Shown one piece after another: positions 3,679 to 59,122 of a stretch of 64,000 nucleotides of DNA. The notes beneath the pieces are model-generated. The model made no database searches, was not told where the DNA came from, and was given only the letters and a program-made list of their open reading frames with translations. Position 1 is the first letter of the stretch. Each line of letters opens with the position of its first letter. A program made the position numbers and the translations under genes. Origin of the DNA: a virus; the IMG/VR virus record IMGVR_UViG_3300036715_001783, positions 1 to 64,000 of that record; one strand, 5' to 3'.

Positions 3679-4236
3679 ATGACTGAAAAAATCTATAGTG
3701 GAATTGGTTCGAGAGACACTCCTGCACCAATTCTATTACAAATGGAGCAGTTGGCTGTGTTAGCATCTGAACAGGGTTGGATTTTGAGGTCAGGAGGGGC
3801 GGTGGGTGCTGATTCGGCATTTGAGGCGGGGTGTGATAAAGTTAGTGGACAAAAAGAAATTTACATTCCATTCAAGTTATTCAATAACCACCATTCCTCC
3901 CTATACCCACCATCTGAACTTGCACACATGACTGCAAAATATGTTCATCCAAATTATACTGCGTTATCACGAGTTGCCAGATTATTAATTGGTAGAAATA
4001 TGCATCAAATACTTGGTTGGAATATGAGTCTTCCTGTGAGGTGTGTTGTGTGTTACACAAAAGATGGGTGTGAATCGTTTAAAACTTATAGTAGAGGTAC
4101 GGGTGGAACAGGTAGTGCTATTGCACTTGCGTCATATCTAAGTATTCCGGTGTTCAATTTATACCACAAAGATAGATATGATGCTGCAGTTAAATTTTTA
4201 ATGGACCCAGATGAATGTGAAATCATTCAATTATAG
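3679..4236 (+). CDS. SLOG/DprA-like protein
   Basis: YSGIGSR.TP, LRSGGA.GAD, GGTGSAI..A....IPVFNL. Confidence 0.8.
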   Translation: MTEKIYSGIGSRDTPAPILLQMEQLAVLASEQGWILRSGGAVGADSAFEAGCDKVSGQKEIYIPFKLFNNHHSSLYPPSELAHMTAKYVHPNYTALSRVARLLIGRNMHQILGWNMSLPVRCVVCYTKDGCESFKTYSRGTGGTGSAIALASYLSIPVFNLYHKDRYDAAVKFLMDPDECEIIQL

Positions 4237-49856: not shown

Positions 49857-50617
49857 TCCCATTGACTTTTAATATATAATCCCATATAATCCTCTTTTAA
49901 TATATCTAAAGGGGATTATTATGAACGGCATTGAAATAGATAGTACAGTAACAGCACTTGTTGATTTTGGCGAAGTTAAAGCAGGTGATGTTGGAGCAGT
50001 CGAAGATATTCAACCCAACCCCACACCTGACAAGTGAGTATAAAATCAATGAAGATAAATCCAATTTTGATGTTGATTATACTCGTGATAGCTGCGGTAG
50101 CGACTGGCAAAAAGATAATCAACAATACTAATGCTAAATCTATTTGGCAAGATATTATCATTGTTATCACAAACGAATAACTTATTAAGGAGTTCAAATA
50201 TGTCTGACAATAAACATTATAAAATTAACTTGTGGAAGGTATTAGCTGTTGTGGTATTGTTAGCTGTTATTGACTTGTTAATTTCAAATTACACATCATA
50301 CCAATCAAAAATTGATTGGTATGATGTGTGGTATTCCATCACAAATTTCATATACGATGACAGTGTTCCTGTTGAAACTTGTATGAAAACTCAATGTGAT
50401 GACCCCAAGCTTCCTTTTTGGAGCAAATTATGACTGAAACAATTGATAGTAAACATAAGCAAGGCGATATCGTGTATTTTGCAACTGATAGCACCAGAAT
50501 GGTAGTGTTATTAGTTAAAAACCCTCAAGGTGATGTGTGATATATGTGTGGTTGATTATACACCCGTAACCATTATCAAATGGCTGATTTACCTGAGTGT
50601 GCATTACGGAGTAGAGC

Positions 50618-50892: not shown

Positions 50893-50958
50893 CCCCCTAT
50901 TGACATTTAATTTATTTCATGTATAATAGGGTTTTTAAATTAATCAAAAGGAGATAAT
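50893..50958 (+). repeat. 66-bp direct repeat, left copy (promoter plus RBS)
   Basis: 65/66 identical to 59057-59122; contains TTGACA..TATAAT and AAGGAG. Confidence 0.95.
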
Positions 50959-50959
50959 T

Positions 50960-52033
50960 GTGACAAAAGAAAAGGTTCCAAAGGTAAAAACCTGGGATGA
51001 GAAGTGGGGGAATTTAACAGATGATGCTATACTGGTGTCTGGTAATAATGCTGTTCACTATTCATTCAAATATATCAATTCAAACTTACAAGGTGGAATA
51101 AGATTATCTCCATCTGATGTGATATTAGATTCACCATATGTTTCTGGTATAACTGCTATGTGTTATCAACAACTACCTGTTGAATACTTTGCGTCATCTG
51201 TTATCACAATTTATAGTTATTTAGATTACCTTAATAACTCAAATCCAAGTCACCCACACGTTTCACTATTTACAACCAACCATACAGCTAGGTATGAATA
51301 TGGTACAACTGATTTATCTGGAACAAATTGTCGAATGAGACAAGTTTTGATACCTATTGGTGATGGGTACATAAGTGCTACACCAGTTAGTCCAGCAGGA
51401 TTTAATTACCTAATGAAACAATTGAATGACCAAATTGAACCCAAAGAACGGTTAACTACTTATTTCATCACGTATGGTGGTGCAAATGGACGGAATGTTG
51501 GGTGGGAAGCATGCAAAAAACATACCTATGCACTGTGTATGTCAGCTCCAACTGAGGATAGAAACATCCAACATGCGTATTCTATTTTTTACAAAGGTGT
51601 TGACTTGTCTTTGCCTAAACATATTGTACGTGAGTTATTTAATTTGCGACTACACCCCGACATGGTGGGATATACCAAAAAAGAAAATGATATATTATCA
51701 AGTTTCATCAATGTGGTGTTGCACAAAGCTGTATTAGCTCGAGACATATTAATATCACAGAAGGATGCATTATATGATGCAGAACTATTTGAAAATGTTA
51801 CTGCACCACATAGTTATATTTTTGAATTACATGAGTCAGTAACAAACGATCTTATACAAAGTGGACTAATAAATCCAACTAAACGGAATAAGGAATGGAA
51901 AGGGTTGTTGGCAACTAAGATTGTGAGCATGTTGGTGGATGAGAAGATCACTATTAGTGGGCAAACACGGTCATTAAATCTTGATGATGACCAAATTGCT
52001 GAACTATCAGATAAGATGAGAAAAATGCTATGA
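50960..52033 (+). CDS. cas8f: Type I-F Cas8f (Csy1)-like
   Basis: Operon position; H.SFKY, RQV.IP.GDGY...TP, YGGAN..NVG. Confidence 0.75.
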   Translation: MTKEKVPKVKTWDEKWGNLTDDAILVSGNNAVHYSFKYINSNLQGGIRLSPSDVILDSPYVSGITAMCYQQLPVEYFASSVITIYSYLDYLNNSNPSHPHVSLFTTNHTARYEYGTTDLSGTNCRMRQVLIPIGDGYISATPVSPAGFNYLMKQLNDQIEPKERLTTYFITYGGANGRNVGWEACKKHTYALCMSAPTEDRNIQHAYSIFYKGVDLSLPKHIVRELFNLRLHPDMVGYTKKENDILSSFINVVLHKAVLARDILISQKDALYDAELFENVTAPHSYIFELHESVTNDLIQSGLINPTKRNKEWKGLLATKIVSMLVDEKITISGQTRSLNLDDDQIAELSDKMRKML

Positions 52034-52833
52034 ACAATATATTAATAATTCCAAGAATTGAAGTGGTCAAATATAATGTATTGGCTTCTCAGTGGTTAAT
52101 TTCACCAACCCCTGTACATGCCATAAACATGTTTGTCCACAATTTACAACTTAAAACTGGTATTGTATGCTCACGGGTATCCATTGTGCACCATGATTTT
52201 TCATACAAGGCTGCTATTGGGAAATATAATGCACCCGCATTTGAAAAGCCAAAGGGAGCATCGTTTATTGATAAGTTAGATTATCCAAGTGACGGAAAGC
52301 CATTAATAGGGCCAAAATCACTATCATTTCAACCTAATTTTTATGGAGACATGACTATTAGTTTGATTATCGAAATTGACGATAGTGATAAGCACACAGA
52401 CGTGGAAGATTTTCTACATACAGCAAAAATTGCTGGTGGGGATATTATATCACACAAACCAATAAAGGTGTGTAATATCGCTGATGTATTTAACCACATC
52501 AAAACTGGTTTCTTCGTCGAAGATTATAGCCACCTAATTGACCCTTCAAAAAATCAATTAGAACAATTGGTTACAACAATATCTAATAGCAAAGATTGGA
52601 TAAGTGCTGCCACATTGGGGTATGCTAAACTAACACAAGAGATTCACAAGCCAGGAGTACGAAATGGTGTTAAACATTGTTTCGTAGAGCCTTTAGTGGG
52701 GCTAATAAAATATATTCCAATTCACAACACCAAGGATGTTTCTGATATTCGATTTTGGAATTATGAGTGGAACACCCCATCAACTTTTATATGCAAACAA
52801 GAAGCCCTAATTTTAAATTCAGAGGAGAATTAA
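52030..52833 (+). CDS. cas5f: Type I-F Cas5f (Csy2)
   Basis: I.IP.I.V..YN, F.H.L, KIAGG.I, GY..L, R..H.FVEP..GL. Confidence 0.88.
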   Translation: MNNILIIPRIEVVKYNVLASQWLISPTPVHAINMFVHNLQLKTGIVCSRVSIVHHDFSYKAAIGKYNAPAFEKPKGASFIDKLDYPSDGKPLIGPKSLSFQPNFYGDMTISLIIEIDDSDKHTDVEDFLHTAKIAGGDIISHKPIKVCNIADVFNHIKTGFFVEDYSHLIDPSKNQLEQLVTTISNSKDWISAATLGYAKLTQEIHKPGVRNGVKHCFVEPLVGLIKYIPIHNTKDVSDIRFWNYEWNTPSTFICKQEALILNSEEN

Positions 52834-52834
52834 T

Positions 52835-53890
52835 ATGTCAAAACAAGTTTTTAAAAAGACCCCAAGTGTGTTAGCATTTCAACGGGCTGTATTAGCAACC
52901 GATGCTTTAATTTACAGTGTGTTGGATACCGGTATTGAGTTACCAGTACAAGTGACAGAAGTTGGAATCAGAGGTACTCAAAATATTAATGGTTCAATAA
53001 AAGAAGAAGTGCGAAATCTTCAATTGGTGGACGCTGCTAAAACTGCACCAAATACAAAGTTTGTTAAATTTGTATTTGGTATTAAGTTTATTGATATAAG
53101 AAAATCATTACACTCCATCGCAAGTGGTAAAGAGGATAGCAAACAAGACGTAAGTGATTTCAAACAAAGTTTAGATGAATTTTTGAACAGAGTAACTGGT
53201 CAAGAAGATGGAGAATTAGAAATCACTGGTAGTGATGGAATTTTAGATGTTGCAACTCGTTATGCCAGAAATATTGCAAATGCAAAGTGGTTGTGGCGTA
53301 ATCGGTTATATGCTTCATCAATCACAACAACCGTTTCTGTTACTGATATCAAATCAAAACAGGCTCCTACAGTGTTTGTGTTTGATTCACTTGAGGTAGA
53401 ATCTAAACATTTTGATGATTTTACTAAGGACGAAGAAGAACTTGGTAAACTAATCAACGATAGCTTATTAGGTACACGATTGTTAACCATCGAAGTATCA
53501 AGTGTTGTGGATTTTGGGGTTACAGGCGTGTTTGAAGTATTCCCATCCCAGTTATTCATTGATACTGATGCACTACCAAAAAATAAAAAAGGTAAATTTT
53601 TGTATGCAATCAAAAATAGCAATGATAGCATTGGCCAAGCAGCCATTAGAGATCAAAAAATAACCAATGCGTTGAGAACAATTGATACTTGGTACAAAGA
53701 ATTTGATCAAGTAAAAGATCCTATTCCAGTTGAACCAAATGGTGCAAGTTTAACCCATATGGTCTTTTTTAGAAAAGGTGCAGAATCGTCCTTTGATATT
53801 ATTAAACGATTGAACACCATTGATGTTGATAGTGATGAAGGTAAGTTCTTTATATCCGCATTAATTCGTGGCGGCGTTTATTCATCATAA
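52835..53890 (+). CDS. cas7f: Type I-F Cas7f (Csy3)
   Basis: SVLAF.R, IRGT, NLQ.VD, A.RYA.NIAN..WLWRN, PSQ, QKI.NALRTIDTWY, LIRGGV. Confidence 0.95.
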   Translation: MSKQVFKKTPSVLAFQRAVLATDALIYSVLDTGIELPVQVTEVGIRGTQNINGSIKEEVRNLQLVDAAKTAPNTKFVKFVFGIKFIDIRKSLHSIASGKEDSKQDVSDFKQSLDEFLNRVTGQEDGELEITGSDGILDVATRYARNIANAKWLWRNRLYASSITTTVSVTDIKSKQAPTVFVFDSLEVESKHFDDFTKDEEELGKLINDSLLGTRLLTIEVSSVVDFGVTGVFEVFPSQLFIDTDALPKNKKGKFLYAIKNSNDSIGQAAIRDQKITNALRTIDTWYKEFDQVKDPIPVEPNGASLTHMVFFRKGAESSFDIIKRLNTIDVDSDEGKFFISALIRGGVYSS

Positions 53891-53901
53891 GGAATAATAA
53901 C

Positions 53902-54474
53902 ATGACAATTTTGCATTATGTTGATTTAACACACTCCCGGTTCAATAATATTCCACAAGATAAGTCTAATATATTCAGACTATTGCATGGTATTTTTAAA
54001 TCAGATAATCATTTATACAACGTATTCGGGTTAGCTTTTATTAAAAATGGAGTTAGAGTGTTTTGTGAAGATATTGGTGGGTTAGAAGATTTGTGGACAG
54101 AACTAAAAAATAACGATTCTGTAAAAGAATCATTTTATTTAGATAGACCAAATTCTGTTAATTTATCAAAATATATTGGCGGATGGATTTCGCATTCAAG
54201 GTTCTCTATCCCAACAAGAAAACAAGATAGACACCCAACAGGTCCACTACGAAGAAAACGATTATTAGAAGCAGATGAAAATCCTAACATTTCATATGTA
54301 AATGTTGGTTCAAAATCACAACAAACCCATTTCAGATATTATGTGAATCATCAATTCCATAATGATTGGAATTATGAGAGTGGTTGGGAAACTAATGGTT
54401 ATGGATTGTCATCATCTACAAGGTTGGTTGCTTTTCCATATTCAATTGGTAGAGAGTATCCGATTTATGAATGA
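53902..54474 (+). CDS. cas6f: Type I-F Cas6f (Csy4)
   Basis: HYVD, LH, S.S..T.F, N.YGLS.....P. Confidence 0.85.
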   Translation: MTILHYVDLTHSRFNNIPQDKSNIFRLLHGIFKSDNHLYNVFGLAFIKNGVRVFCEDIGGLEDLWTELKNNDSVKESFYLDRPNSVNLSKYIGGWISHSRFSIPTRKQDRHPTGPLRRKRLLEADENPNISYVNVGSKSQQTHFRYYVNHQFHNDWNYESGWETNGYGLSSSTRLVAFPYSIGREYPIYE

Positions 54475-55012
54475 CCCAACATTCACAGGGATAATGTTAT
54501 CTAAGCATTAGTCATCGTGTAGATGATTTAGAAATCCCATTGATAAAGTTAGAGGACAAGTGAACAAATCTACTAATGTGAATGAATTGATGGGACATGA
54601 AGGAGCATTTGCAAAGAAACTATTTTCACTGTTAGCAACTGGTTTCAACATAACTAATTTTTCAAGACAACGAAATGAACAAGATTCTACACAATCTATT
54701 AATGTTATGATTAATAACTATTTAGATTATGGTAATTATTTGGCCTATGGATACGCTGCTGTAGTTCTAAATGGGTTGGGATTGAATCATGGGTTTCCGT
54801 TGTTGCACGGTACAACCAGAAGAGATGCTTTAATTTTTGATGTAGCTGATTTATTCAAAGATGGGCATATAATGCCCACTGCTTTCGAATATGCTACATC
54901 AGGAACAAAACAAACAGGACAACTATATAGACAATTAGTTACCAAACATTGCTACGATTCAGGGGTGTTAGATGACGCATTTTTATCCATGAAATCCATC
55001 GTTTCTTTGTGA
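54467..55012 (+). pseudogene. cas1: cas1 (type I-F) disrupted by a CRISPR repeat and an internal deletion
   Basis: MNDPTFTGIMLSK, repeat, then ...LMGHEG..K.LF, F.R, N.YLDYGNYLAYGYAA, LHG.TRR.AL.FDVADLFKD. Confidence 0.85.
54507..54534 (+). repeat. Solitary CRISPR repeat inside cas1
   Basis: Exact ATTAGTCATCGTGTAGATGATTTAGAAA. Confidence 0.97.
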
Positions 55013-55027
55013 TTGTTACCTATGTTG

Positions 55028-55056
55028 TTGATTTTAGCAGTAAAATGTGCTAAACT
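55028..55056 (+). promoter_or_regulatory. CRISPR leader promoter
   Basis: TTGATT-N17-TAAACT, 5 nt before repeat 1. Confidence 0.6.
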
Positions 55057-55061
55057 ACAGC

Positions 55062-56049
55062 ATTAGTCATCGTGTAGATGATTTAGAAACGCATGAATAA
55101 CGCTACGCGGCATACCGTCATATTAGTCATCGTGTAGATGATTTAGAAATGACATGACAGTTGACATGACAGGTGATGTGAATTAGTCATCGTGTAGATG
55201 ATTTAGAAATGATGATGTGATGTTGTCATACAGTCGTGATAATTAGTCATCGTGTAGATGATTTAGAAACAAACAAACCATGCCTGTTTTACCCACTACT
55301 TATTAGTCATCGTGTAGATGATTTAGAAAAATTCGGTAGTGGCTCTTCAGCACAATCAATGATTAGTCATCGTGTAGATGATTTAGAAAACCATATGAAG
55401 GAGTGGTAGCACCATCGGGGCATTAGTCATCGTGTAGATGATTTAGAAACACTTGGAGGATATTTCTTAGATGGACACAAAATTAGTCATCGTGTAGATG
55501 ATTTAGAAATAGACCCATTGTCTGTTCCACCAGTATGGTAAATTAGTCATCGTGTAGATGATTTAGAAAATCAAATAATAAAATATTTTTGATTGATAAA
55601 TATTAGTCATCGTGTAGATGATTTAGAAAAATGGAGTAATAGTGAGTTTGACAGCTGATGTATTAGTCATCGTGTAGATGATTTAGAAATCAAAGTATCG
55701 CCATATAATCAGCTCCTTCTAATTAGTCATCGTGTAGATGATTTAGAAAATTATATGCAAAAGGTAGATTTACGTTAGTTGATTAGTCATCGTGTAGATG
55801 ATTTAGAAAACATAAGTACACATATGGGTATTTGGTTAATAATTAGTCATCGTGTAGATGATTTAGAAAAATCAATTTTTGATATAGATGTGTAATTTGA
55901 AATTAGTCATCGTGTAGATGATTTAGAAAAGCATACGGGTACAAAGGAGAAGTTGGATTCAATTAGTCATCGTGTAGATGATTTAGAAAACATGAATAAT
56001 ATACAATCATCGTCTGCAATAATTAGTCATCGTGTAGATGATTTAGAAA
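55062..56049 (+). CRISPR. Type I-F array: 17 identical 28-bp repeats, 16 spacers of 32 bp
   Basis: 60-bp period; TCATC-GTGTA-GATGA hairpin; repeat ends TAGAAA. Confidence 0.99.
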
Positions 56050-56073
56050 TGTTATAACAATCGGAGGGTAATA

Positions 56074-59052
56074 ATGTTTATAGTAATTGTATCATCATGT
56101 ATTAAGAAAGCAAAAGGTAGAACAAGAAGAGTATTAGATCAATATGCTACCCGGATAGAGTCGAATGCTTGGCAAACACCAATAACCAATATTGGATTAC
56201 AACAACTGCACAAGGACCTAAAAAAGGTAGCAACTAGACACACATCAGTAACTTGTTTTGTTAATAGTGGGTACAAACAACTTCAAAAATTATGGACTGT
56301 TGGATCTGAAGCTAGCAAATACAACTTCCAACAAAGTGTGTTCAAGACTAAAGATGGTAGCTCATACCGGTCAACTGTCCCACCACACATCCGCAAAATT
56401 TCATTATTATCCAAAACCGCTGGATATGCTCATGATTTGGGCAAAGCCTCTGTTAAATTTCAAAATAAATTAATAGGGAAGGGTTCCATTGGAGATGATA
56501 TCCGACATGAGTGGATATCAATGAGAGTTCTCCAACAACTTAGAAAAGGAAAATCTTGGCAACAGGCATGGGACTCCCCTATAAACATTGAGTTTGATGG
56601 GTTTATGAAAAATGGGATGACTCAGATCAACGATGTGTTGGATTTTTGTGTGGCTACTCATCATGGACTATTCTGCAAGTATGACACAGAGACTCGGGAA
56701 ATAAACAACGATGTAAATAATTTTCACGTAAGAAATGTAAATTTTAAATCATCAGATTTTCAAGTAGCTGGTAACATTGACCCTGATTTATTATCTAAAA
56801 TATCATCAGGTGAAAAAAGATTAAACAAAATGATTTCGGGGGCAACTCCTCTTGAATTGGAATACCTAGCTTGGATTTCCAGAGCTATGTTAATTATGGC
56901 AGACCAAGTTGTTTCTGCAACACACAAAAACAAATACAAAAAAAGTGAGTTATACGCTAATACCGATAGAATACTAGGTCAAAAAAATGGTCCACTTAAT
57001 CAACCATTAGATTATCATTTAACTAATGTTGGTGAGTATGCATCTAATTATGCATACAAGTTTCTAACAGAAGTTGACTATCCAGCTTTATCCTCACAAA
57101 CTATCAGCAATATTTTAACAAAATCAACAGATACCAGATTTGTTTGGCAGGATATTGCTTGTGAACATTTTATAGCTCAACCTGAATCAAATTTTTTAAT
57201 TTTCAATATTGCAAATACAGGATGTGGGAAAACTCTAGCAAACCTAAAACTTGCAACAACTATTTCAAAAAATGAAGAACAAACAAGAATATCTATCTGC
57301 CTCAATTTACGCTCTCTAACTCTACAAACTGGTAGAGAATATAACCGTATATTGAACCCACATGAAATAGACGCATTTGCTGTCCTTATAGGGGACAAAA
57401 CTACCCAACAACTATTTGATAATGACTGCGACGAAAATATTACCGAACCTAATATTGACATCGACGAAAACTTCCATATAAACAAGGAGTTACCTGAATG
57501 GTTGGAATTATTTTGTGATCTGTCATCAAATAGGAACACTATATTAGCGGCACCATTATTAGTGTCCACTGTAGATTATTTAATAAAAGCAGCTACCCCA
57601 AGTGCACAAGGCCACCATGTTGCAAGTTTAATTAGAGCAGCCTCATCTGATTTAATATTAGATGAAGTTGACGGATATGAACCTAATCAATTGGTAATTA
57701 TATGTAAATTGATTGAATTAGTTTCTTTTTTCGGTAGAAACGTAATATGCTCGACCGCTACTTTATCCACACCTGTTGCTGATTTAATATTGATAGCGTT
57801 TAATAGAGGTAGAGAAGCTCGACAATTGTTGATTGATAGTAATCACACATCCCAATTTGGAATTGTGGATAATATAATTAAACCATCATCAATATCATTT
57901 GGGGAAGATGTAAAAACTCATTACATGAACACAATAACAACCAAAAATAATTTAAACAATCAAGTAATAACAAAACTTGCAAAATTAACTCGTGTTCCAG
58001 AGGTAACAGAAGAATGTTGGTTTAATTCAATAGCAGAGGATTGTGTTGAACACCATAACAACCACCAGTGGATATACAAAGAAGCAACAGTTTCAATTGG
58101 ATTGATACGAGTTGCTAATATTAAACATGGAATTGCCTTATCCAAATTCTTGACACAAACCCTATCAAACGTAAAGGTATGTTTTTATCACGCAAATGAT
58201 TTCAAAATCGCTAGGTTTCACAAAGAACAAATATTAGATAGATTATTAACTAGAAAAAATCCCAACAAGGTGTATTCGGATTTGGATAGTGAATTGGAGC
58301 CTGGAAAAGATATAATGTTTATAGTTGTAGCAACTCCTGTTGAAGAAATAGGAAGAGACCATGATTTTGATTGGGCTATTATTGAGCCATCAAGTTGCTC
58401 ATCTATTATACAAACAGCTGGTCGAGTCAATCGACACCGTCTAATTAAGCAAACAGTTCCTAATATTAGTATATTGCAATACAATCATCGAAATATTAAC
58501 AACCACAACAAATCAACAAAGATATCATTTGTGAGACCTGGATTGGAATGTCAATTAATTGGAGGAACATCTCACCCATCCAAAGATATAGAACAATTAT
58601 TGCCATGGGATAATGATGTATTGCAAATATCGTCAACGTTAAGATTTAATAGTGTGTTTGCAAGTTGTGATGATACAGCAATATCAAATACCACTACTCA
58701 CGCTATTAAAAGGTTTTTTTCTACTAAGCACACCCTATTATTAAAAAATAAATTTTATAATGACTATAGGTTGCGTGATAATGAACAACAAACTGAAATT
58801 ATATTAGGCTGGGAAAATGGTGACACTTATAAATTTTGTGAGTATAAACAACTACCCGTTATAAGGACCAATAAAGTATTAGTTGATCCACCATATGGAA
58901 ATACTTGGCTATCATTATCACACCTCGAGTTGAATAAAAAATGTAAGGCTAATGATGTTCCATACTATATTGGTAAATCATTATCCGTAAGAAAAGTTAA
59001 AGACGAAACAAGCCTTCACCACGATTGGTCATTTGGTTGGTGGATGGAATAA
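56074..59052 (+). CDS. cas3: Cas2-Cas3 fusion (type I-F)
   Basis: VS.C.KKA..RTRRVLD.YA, WQT.IT..GL; HDLGK, RHEW.S; A.TG.GKT, DEVD, ATPV.E.GRD.DFD, Q.AGRV.RHR. Confidence 0.95.
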   Translation: MFIVIVSSCIKKAKGRTRRVLDQYATRIESNAWQTPITNIGLQQLHKDLKKVATRHTSVTCFVNSGYKQLQKLWTVGSEASKYNFQQSVFKTKDGSSYRSTVPPHIRKISLLSKTAGYAHDLGKASVKFQNKLIGKGSIGDDIRHEWISMRVLQQLRKGKSWQQAWDSPINIEFDGFMKNGMTQINDVLDFCVATHHGLFCKYDTETREINNDVNNFHVRNVNFKSSDFQVAGNIDPDLLSKISSGEKRLNKMISGATPLELEYLAWISRAMLIMADQVVSATHKNKYKKSELYANTDRILGQKNGPLNQPLDYHLTNVGEYASNYAYKFLTEVDYPALSSQTISNILTKSTDTRFVWQDIACEHFIAQPESNFLIFNIANTGCGKTLANLKLATTISKNEEQTRISICLNLRSLTLQTGREYNRILNPHEIDAFAVLIGDKTTQQLFDNDCDENITEPNIDIDENFHINKELPEWLELFCDLSSNRNTILAAPLLVSTVDYLIKAATPSAQGHHVASLIRAASSDLILDEVDGYEPNQLVIICKLIELVSFFGRNVICSTATLSTPVADLILIAFNRGREARQLLIDSNHTSQFGIVDNIIKPSSISFGEDVKTHYMNTITTKNNLNNQVITKLAKLTRVPEVTEECWFNSIAEDCVEHHNNHQWIYKEATVSIGLIRVANIKHGIALSKFLTQTLSNVKVCFYHANDFKIARFHKEQILDRLLTRKNPNKVYSDLDSELEPGKDIMFIVVATPVEEIGRDHDFDWAIIEPSSCSSIIQTAGRVNRHRLIKQTVPNISILQYNHRNINNHNKSTKISFVRPGLECQLIGGTSHPSKDIEQLLPWDNDVLQISSTLRFNSVFASCDDTAISNTTTHAIKRFFSTKHTLLLKNKFYNDYRLRDNEQQTEIILGWENGDTYKFCEYKQLPVIRTNKVLVDPPYGNTWLSLSHLELNKKCKANDVPYYIGKSLSVRKVKDETSLHHDWSFGWWME

Positions 59053-59056
59053 TATA

Positions 59057-59122
59057 CCCCCTATTGACATTTAATTTATTTCGTGTATAATAGGGTTTTT
59101 AAATTAATCAAAAGGAGATAAT
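59057..59122 (+). repeat. 66-bp direct repeat, right copy
   Basis: See 50893-50958. Confidence 0.95.

Follow-up and report, generated by a model that had tools for sequence, protein, structure and literature searches.

A type I-F CRISPR-Cas cassette in a phage genome

The window, that is, the whole stretch of 64,000 nucleotides that was analysed, comprises the first 64 kb of an 80.7-kb virus record of IMG/VR. The phage DNA has a GC content of 36%. The CheckV completeness is about 30%, and hence the phage genome probably measures roughly 270 kb. The window contains one co-directional CRISPR-Cas block of 8.1 kb, flanked by two almost identical direct repeats (Table 1), and recombination between these could mediate loss or gain of the cassette.

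Table 1. Features of the CRISPR-Cas block, with positions in the window.
Feature	Position	Strand	Evidence or remark
66-bp direct repeat, copy 1	50893..50958	+	promoter TTGACA-16-TATAAT and RBS, directly 5′ of csy1
csy1/cas8f-like, 357 aa, very divergent	50960..52033	+	tblastn, position
csy2/cas5f	52030..52833	+	PF09614, E 3e-12
csy3/cas7f	52835..53890	+	TIGR02566, 224 bits (cutoff 157.6)
cas6f, Csy4-like endoribonuclease, divergent	53902..54474	+	PF09618, weak, E 0.0055
cas1 5′ stub, 13 codons plus C	54467..54506	+	start overlaps the cas6f stop (ATGAATGA)
Lone CRISPR repeat (R0)	54507..54534	+	28/28 identical to the array repeats
cas1 3′ remnant, Cas1f C-terminal catalytic domain	54535..55012	+	frame open, in phase with the stub; possible GTG start at 54560
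Leader-like gap, 49 nt, ends in AGC	55013..55061	+	motif TTGATTTTAG at 55028-55037
CRISPR array, 17 perfect repeats and 16 spacers of 32 nt	55062..56049	+	60-nt spacing
cas2/3 (Cas2 domain, HD, helicase)	56074..59052	+	TIGR02562, 621 bits (cutoff 566); PF21384
66-bp direct repeat, copy 2	59057..59122	+	same promoter and RBS; 65/66 identical to copy 1

The cassette is of type I-F, as judged by the Cas2-Cas3 fusion (Cas3f), by Csy2/Cas5f, Csy3/Cas7f and Cas6f encoded in a row, and by the format of repeats and spacers. The repeat is 28 nt long with a 5-bp stem, a 5-nt loop and an ...AGAAA handle, which together with spacers of 32 nt is the type I-F form. The PF21384 Cas2 domain occupies residues 1-78 of the cas2/3 product. 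Two of the genes are divergent. The csy1-like protein matched nothing in Pfam or NCBIfam, and its identity is based on its position and on a weak tblastn match to the csy1 position of Acinetobacter loci (26-27% identity, E 1e-18 to 1e-23). Cas6f was linked by BLASTP (E 1e-9) to the syntenic Acinetobacter protein, Csy4, which itself matches PF09618 at 6e-23.

A promoter scan of the locus found a consensus promoter (12/12) at 50900-50927, and a scan of the block, including the region before cas2/3, found no terminator-like site. With a promoter at the head, no terminator-like site and gaps of only 49 and 24 nt around the array, the cassette is probably transcribed as one long RNA from the promoter at 50900 and cut by Cas6f at every repeat. 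The last array repeat (56022-56076 region) is perfect rather than degenerate, and cas2/3 starts 24 nt later, with a GGAGGG RBS in between; the 5′ end of the cas2/3 mRNA would be made by Cas6f.

Spacer 14 (55870-55901) matches the phage's own genome at 50283-50319 on the minus strand, next to the correct CC PAM. Identity to the self-site covers spacer positions 1-14 and 18-32; between them the spacer has ATA and the phage TGGTAT. A small ORF (about 50199-50433) contains the site, which falls inside a palindrome with 18-nt arms just upstream of the cassette. This spacer looks like one derived from a close relative's allele, in a conflict between phages, or like an escaped self-target.

The cas1 remnant and the lone repeat

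Searching for the 28-nt repeat with up to three mismatches retrieved 18 copies, all perfect and all on the plus strand, with 17 in the array and one, R0, standing alone. None was found in shuffled sequence or in the rest of the 80.7-kb record. The original prediction, made from the letters of the sequence, had described a cas1 gene with a Cas1f-like start at the ATG at 54467, interrupted by one perfect 28-bp repeat that contributes two stops and followed in the same frame by the C-terminal half of Cas1f, with about half of the protein missing; each of these points was borne out. Translated in a single frame, 54467-55012 reads MNDPTFTGIMLSKH, a stop, SSCR, a second stop and FRNPIDKV..., the stops being the TAG and TGA of R0. 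The first 13 residues, MNDPTFTGIMLSK, align with the N-terminus of full-length Cas1f, and GIMLSK is the consensus, which reads GIMLSKRAN there. The left border of R0 is ambiguous by 3 nt, as the AGC before it can be read as cas1 sequence (AAG-C) and equally as the leader end.

Downstream of the repeat, the frame aligns with full-length Cas1f homologues from about residue 158-160 onwards. A profile of 25 full-length proteins aligned from model position 160 to its end (190 bits), the NCBIfam Cas1f model TIGR03637 matched at positions 167-305 of 307 (E 5.8e-40, with a score of 137.6 that is below the cutoff of 150), and Cas1 chains of I-F systems in the PDB matched at their residues ~154-306. The comparison with intact Cas1f homologues, which had been suggested as a check, thus identified both flanks of R0 as cas1. 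The remnant retains the columns E176, H243, D254 and D257 (P0003 numbering), which we take to be the Cas1 active-site residues. About 145 codons, the whole N-terminal domain, are absent from the gene, and tblastn of six intact homologues against the 80.7-kb record did not detect this domain at any other place. The product hence lacks the two-domain architecture of Cas1f, an N-terminal beta domain and a C-terminal catalytic domain, but keeps the active site of the latter. In structures such as 3GOD, the N-terminal domain of Cas1 forms the dimer and the Cas2 contacts. Judged by its sequence, cas1 is a real pseudogene that encodes no working integrase, because the N-terminal domain is missing. 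Recoding of the stops or ribosome bypass was considered and rejected: the repeat supplies both TAG and TGA, cas6f and cas1 themselves end in TGA, a CAT-to-CAT hop would land before a TGA, and the N-terminal domain is absent either way.

A search for close relatives whose cas1 is intact returned none; at the protein level, identity to the best full-length Cas1 homologues is 52-54%, and among 401 sampled genomes of the Acinetobacter order it was at most 43%. There was no exact copy of the repeat in IMG/VR, protein-pattern scans with the Cas1 remnant and Csy3 returned nothing close, and GenBank phages matched neither the locus (megablast) nor the array (blastn). No truncated twin of the remnant was present among the proteins of similar length that were searched. 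Another IMG/VR record, IMGVR_UViG_3300006000_000003 (L020:9700-10430), carries only the C-terminal part of cas1 (query residues 162-307), followed by cas2/3. This partial gene lies ~270 nt past the end of a putative repressor-type gene, and may mark a provirus boundary or an insertion inside cas1.

R0 is predicted to fold, in its local context, into a hairpin of the Cas6f type. Since it lies inside what is probably a single transcript, Cas6f should cut it as well, and from the position of the cut at the hairpin base in I-F systems the cleavage should fall after 54526. The operon would in this way have gained an extra Cas6f site, 32 nt past cas6f; an added cut site in the operon mRNA was part of the original prediction. 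The csy mRNA would then end in a Cas6f-bound 3′ hairpin, 52 nt beyond the cas6f stop, and the released RNA of ~555 nt would resemble an oversized crRNA, with a handle of 8 nt at its 5′ end and a hairpin at its 3′ end. As studies of RNA anti-CRISPRs have shown, Cas6f and Cas7f are recruited by RNAs with a terminal I-F hairpin (PMC10651486), and by analogy a cost or a regulatory effect of R0 is conceivable. The closest promoter-like site 5′ of R0 scores 9/12 (54315-54342), with none between it and R0. A reading of R0 as part of a mini-array or guide was also discarded, since by-eye alignment revealed no second repeat in the next 28 nt and the 32 nt that follow R0 are conserved cas1 codons. As a guide, these 32 nt match no promoter, and their sole other match (3834-3852) lacks the seed.

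Possible origins of the interrupted gene

The main clue to the origin comes from the left junction. AGC precedes R0 and repeat 1 but no other repeat, and such sharing of an AGC suffix has a probability of 0.0096 (0.96% of random positions of the genome). Between the 25 nt before R0 and those before repeat 1 there is no homology beyond AGC, and the AGC before R0 consists of the bases expected in cas1 (the Lys codon AAG and the C of an Arg codon). On balance, we favour the view that this is a real cas1 pseudogene in a phage I-F operon which arose by a microhomology-mediated rearrangement with the array 0.5 kb downstream. During replication or repair, a strand would have left cas1 after ...AAGC, re-primed on the AGC at the leader end and, once repeat 1 had been copied, returned to cas1 near codon 158. 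Alternatively, a 555-bp duplication (repeat, cas1 C-terminal half and leader) could have been followed by a deletion between the two AGCs. By either route ~145 codons, the N-terminal domain, would be lost and one perfect repeat would be left behind. In the Acinetobacter relatives the gene order is csy1-4, cas1, leader, array. An arrangement with cas1 beside the leader is hence probably the earlier one, and the donor would have lain 0.5 kb from the break. Three shared nucleotides are nonetheless a thin basis for a mechanism, and the full identity of R0 together with the open C-terminal frame could also mean selection and not a recent event. We also considered microhomology at the right junction, where the last 8 nt of the repeat would overlap the ancestral F-R-N codons, and rejected it, as the profile alignment starts at N23.

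The full identity of R0 and the open frame would suit an alternative, selection of R0 as an RNA element. R0 could mark a boundary, dependent on Cas6f, by which the csy mRNA is stabilised or tuned, or act as a Racr-like decoy for the host's Cas6f and Cas7f; the 150-aa C-terminal domain of Cas1 might likewise decoy the host's adaptation proteins. In line with this, R0 is identical to the array repeats at 28/28 positions and forms the hairpin in context, 150 codons are still open in DNA of 36% GC, a weak SD-like AGAGGA lies 3 nt before the GTG at 54560, and solitary phage repeats are known to act as RNA anti-CRISPRs through Cas6f and Cas7f (PMC10651486). All of these points, however, are equally expected of a recent neutral scar. 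R0 moreover has no promoter of its own, whereas the solitary repeat units described are often placed directly after a promoter and apart from cas genes; a decoy would drain the phage's own Cas6f and Cas7f as well; and no conservation in related phages was found. We therefore regard selection of R0 as unlikely.

The exact borders of the repeat would need no further assumptions if cas1 had been repaired on an array template, with two adjacent cas1-derived spacers (the phage's own or a relative's) serving as 32-nt arms and the repeat between them replacing the DNA between the protospacers. Recombination between spacers and protospacers has been reported between phages and arrays in staphylococci, which speaks for such an exchange. 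The near self-match of spacer 14, with its CC PAM and only 4 kb from cas1, shows that self- or relative-derived spacers occur, and they could have primed acquisition from the cas region. The details fit poorly, though, and the original prediction, which had proposed repair from a spacer-repeat-spacer segment, loses ground here. The left 32-mer (54475-54506) is preceded by GA and not by the CC PAM of I-F systems, and all 16 spacers are exactly 32 nt long, so that a slipped spacer would be needed. A search of the array for spacers equal to either flank (54475-54506 and 54535-54566) gave none among the 16. As the left protospacer would survive the repair, the spacers must also have been lost, and the AGC match to the leader end would have to be due to chance (P ~0.01). 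Taken together, these points make array-templated repair improbable.

An ectopic integration by Cas1-Cas2/3 followed by a deletion had been put forward as well. Integration duplicates its target site and imports no canonical repeat, and what the locus displays is one canonical repeat with neither duplicated cas1 sequence nor a spacer, unlike a neo-CRISPR. A variant in which Cas1-Cas2/3 joined the broken ends of cas1 to both borders of a repeat, and so killed its own gene, would account for both junctions falling on integrase cleavage sites (the left one within 3 nt). By strand-polarity reasoning, two break ends attacking one repeat would yield deletion and duplication products and not the order stub-repeat-remnant, and a further exchange would be needed. 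Microhomology of the AGC kind is not expected of transesterification, and we found no precedent for an integrase-made scar of the stub-repeat-remnant kind. We thus think it improbable that the integrase made this scar.

The junctions themselves were examined in public data. Four public sequencing runs of microbial mat and sediment (2020), which come from four studies, contain the stretch with 0 differing letters; they were compared as Logan contigs (k=31). No contig bridges R0, because the 31-mer composed of AGC and the repeat occurs at both R0 and repeat 1. In run X1, one contig extends over 53729-54533 with 0 mismatches and runs into R0, and a second leads from 54505 through the cas1 C-terminal half and the leader into repeat 1. 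The depth of the shared word in this run (12.5) is about the sum of 6.1 and 7.5, and no loose end leaving at 54506 or entering at 54535 was seen. As the piece with the remnant and the leader is attached only via the shared word, the order in the window is the sole path that uses each piece once. Run X1 may be the source sample of the record, and it accordingly serves as a check of the assembly and not as an independent replication. The proposed check by reads across both junctions was therefore answered in part: contigs support each junction, but no contig or read spans R0 with at least 31 nt on both sides. Runs X3 and X4 (2-5x depth) have uncovered stretches within the cas1 remnant. In run X2, a contig of 148 nt aligned at window positions 54498-54535, with 2 differing letters in the aligned part, contains repeat-spacer-repeat units whose two spacers do not occur in the phage array, and may stem from a variant phage array or from a host array with a GTTCG-type repeat. 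An assembly chimera, in which two true contexts were fused through the 28-nt repeat, had been listed among the possible origins, and the unbridged R0 and the twice-occurring 31-mer, at which short-k graphs branch, would allow for it, but we consider it highly improbable, given that the X1 junction contigs cross 54506 and 54535 unbranched, that their depths fit one copy per context and that cas1 stays broken in the alternative orders too.

Spacer acquisition and comparison with known systems

With cas1 interrupted, we infer that the phage cannot add spacers alone and that its array is frozen unless another Cas1 acts. Interference presumably persists, as the Csy genes, Cas6f, Cas2/3 and the 16 spacers are intact. 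The array itself hints at where another Cas1 might come from. The phage repeat is identical at 26 of 28 positions to the Acinetobacter I-F repeat GTTCGTCATCG...AGAAA, and the exact sequence of its final 23 nt recurs in the I-F arrays of Acinetobacter genomes as well as in metagenome contigs that carry Acinetobacter-like loci. In the phage leader, the 10-mer motif TTGATTTTAG stands 34 nt ahead of repeat 1, the offset at which Acinetobacter leaders have TTGATTTTA[AG]. The remainder of the 49-nt leader is unlike Acinetobacter leaders, and the Cas proteins of the phage are 26-44% identical to those of the Acinetobacter loci. The repeat and the leader motif thus fit an Acinetobacter-like host, whose Cas1-Cas2/3 could still extend the phage array in trans. 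The suggestion in the original prediction that adaptation depends on the host gains support from this resemblance of repeat and leader motif. A more far-reaching reading is that memory-writing has been outsourced: the phage would have lost its own cas1 by rearrangement with the array but kept a leader motif and repeat that suit the host, the Cas1-Cas2/3 of an Acinetobacter-type host would add the spacers, and R0 would be a boundary between csy mRNA and guides made by Cas6f. With a live Cas1, near-self matches such as spacer 14 might prime self-acquisition, and loss of cas1 might have been favoured since such priming would be lethal. We put this reading forward as a speculation of low probability.

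CRISPR systems carried by phages are almost always devoid of adaptation genes, and the route by which these genes are lost has not been documented. In this locus the scar of the loss is preserved, and its junctions suggest recombination with the cassette's own array. The locus also offers natural tests of three questions: whether Cas6f processes its own operon mRNA at the lone repeat, what effect a crRNA-like RNA with a 527-nt 'spacer' has on Csy assembly, and whether a host integrase can write into a phage array with which it has the repeat and leader motif in common. The main interest of the R0 locus lies in its being a snapshot of the loss of an adaptation module and a natural test of how Cas6f processes RNA; only a demonstration of trans-adaptation or of a regulatory role would make it alter the general view of CRISPR biology.

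Two classes of lone repeat have been described from viruses and from cas loci, RNA anti-CRISPRs and regulatory mini-arrays (PMC10651486, PMC10120712), but we found no published description of a cas1 pseudogene with one canonical repeat in place of the deleted part. Like the solitary repeat units and Racr (PMC10651486), R0 is a single viral repeat that, by analogy, Cas6f should bind and cut. Unlike Racr, it interrupts a cas gene at a distance of 555 nt from a full array, in a phage that owns the cognate Cas proteins, and without a promoter of its own; unlike the regulatory mini-arrays (PMC10120712), it lacks a degenerate partner repeat and a guide that matches a promoter. R0 thus falls outside the definitions of both classes. 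In Acinetobacter calcoaceticus (L031:2972-2999), a lone repeat-like extended hairpin, CTAAATCATCGTGTAGATGATTTAGAAA, precedes cas2/3 by ~124 nt and shares its strand. It adjoins an oppositely oriented array, and is probably the autoregulatory mini-array region of Acinetobacter I-F1 loci (PMC10120712).

The Acinetobacter I-F loci resemble the phage cassette in the order from csy1 to the array, in the repeat (26/28), its hairpin and 8-nt handle, and in the motif 34 nt before repeat 1. They differ from it in that their Cas1 is intact (317 aa), their leader measures ~100 nt as against 49 nt here, and their cas2/3 is upstream and divergent. Among phages, ICP1 of Vibrio has an intact Cas1, acquires spacers and carries its genes in the order cas1-cas2/3-csy1-4. 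In the phage studied here, by contrast, the order is csy1-4, cas1 remnant, array and cas2/3, and Cas1 is dead. Both are lytic-type phages with Csy genes, Cas6f, Cas2/3, 28-nt repeats and 32-nt spacers (Seed et al., 2013); their Cas2/3 proteins are 28-30% identical, and the Cas1 of ICP1 (4w8k) matches the remnant. Nearly all phage CRISPR systems lack Cas1 (PMC7162821). As in the systems of huge phages (Al-Shayeb et al., 2020, PMC7162821), interference and the array are kept here while the Cas1 function is absent, the repeat resembles that of the presumed host, and at least one spacer is aimed at a related phage. The huge-phage systems, however, simply lack cas1, whereas the present cassette still shows a remnant and a scar, and has kept the Cas2 domain as part of Cas2/3.
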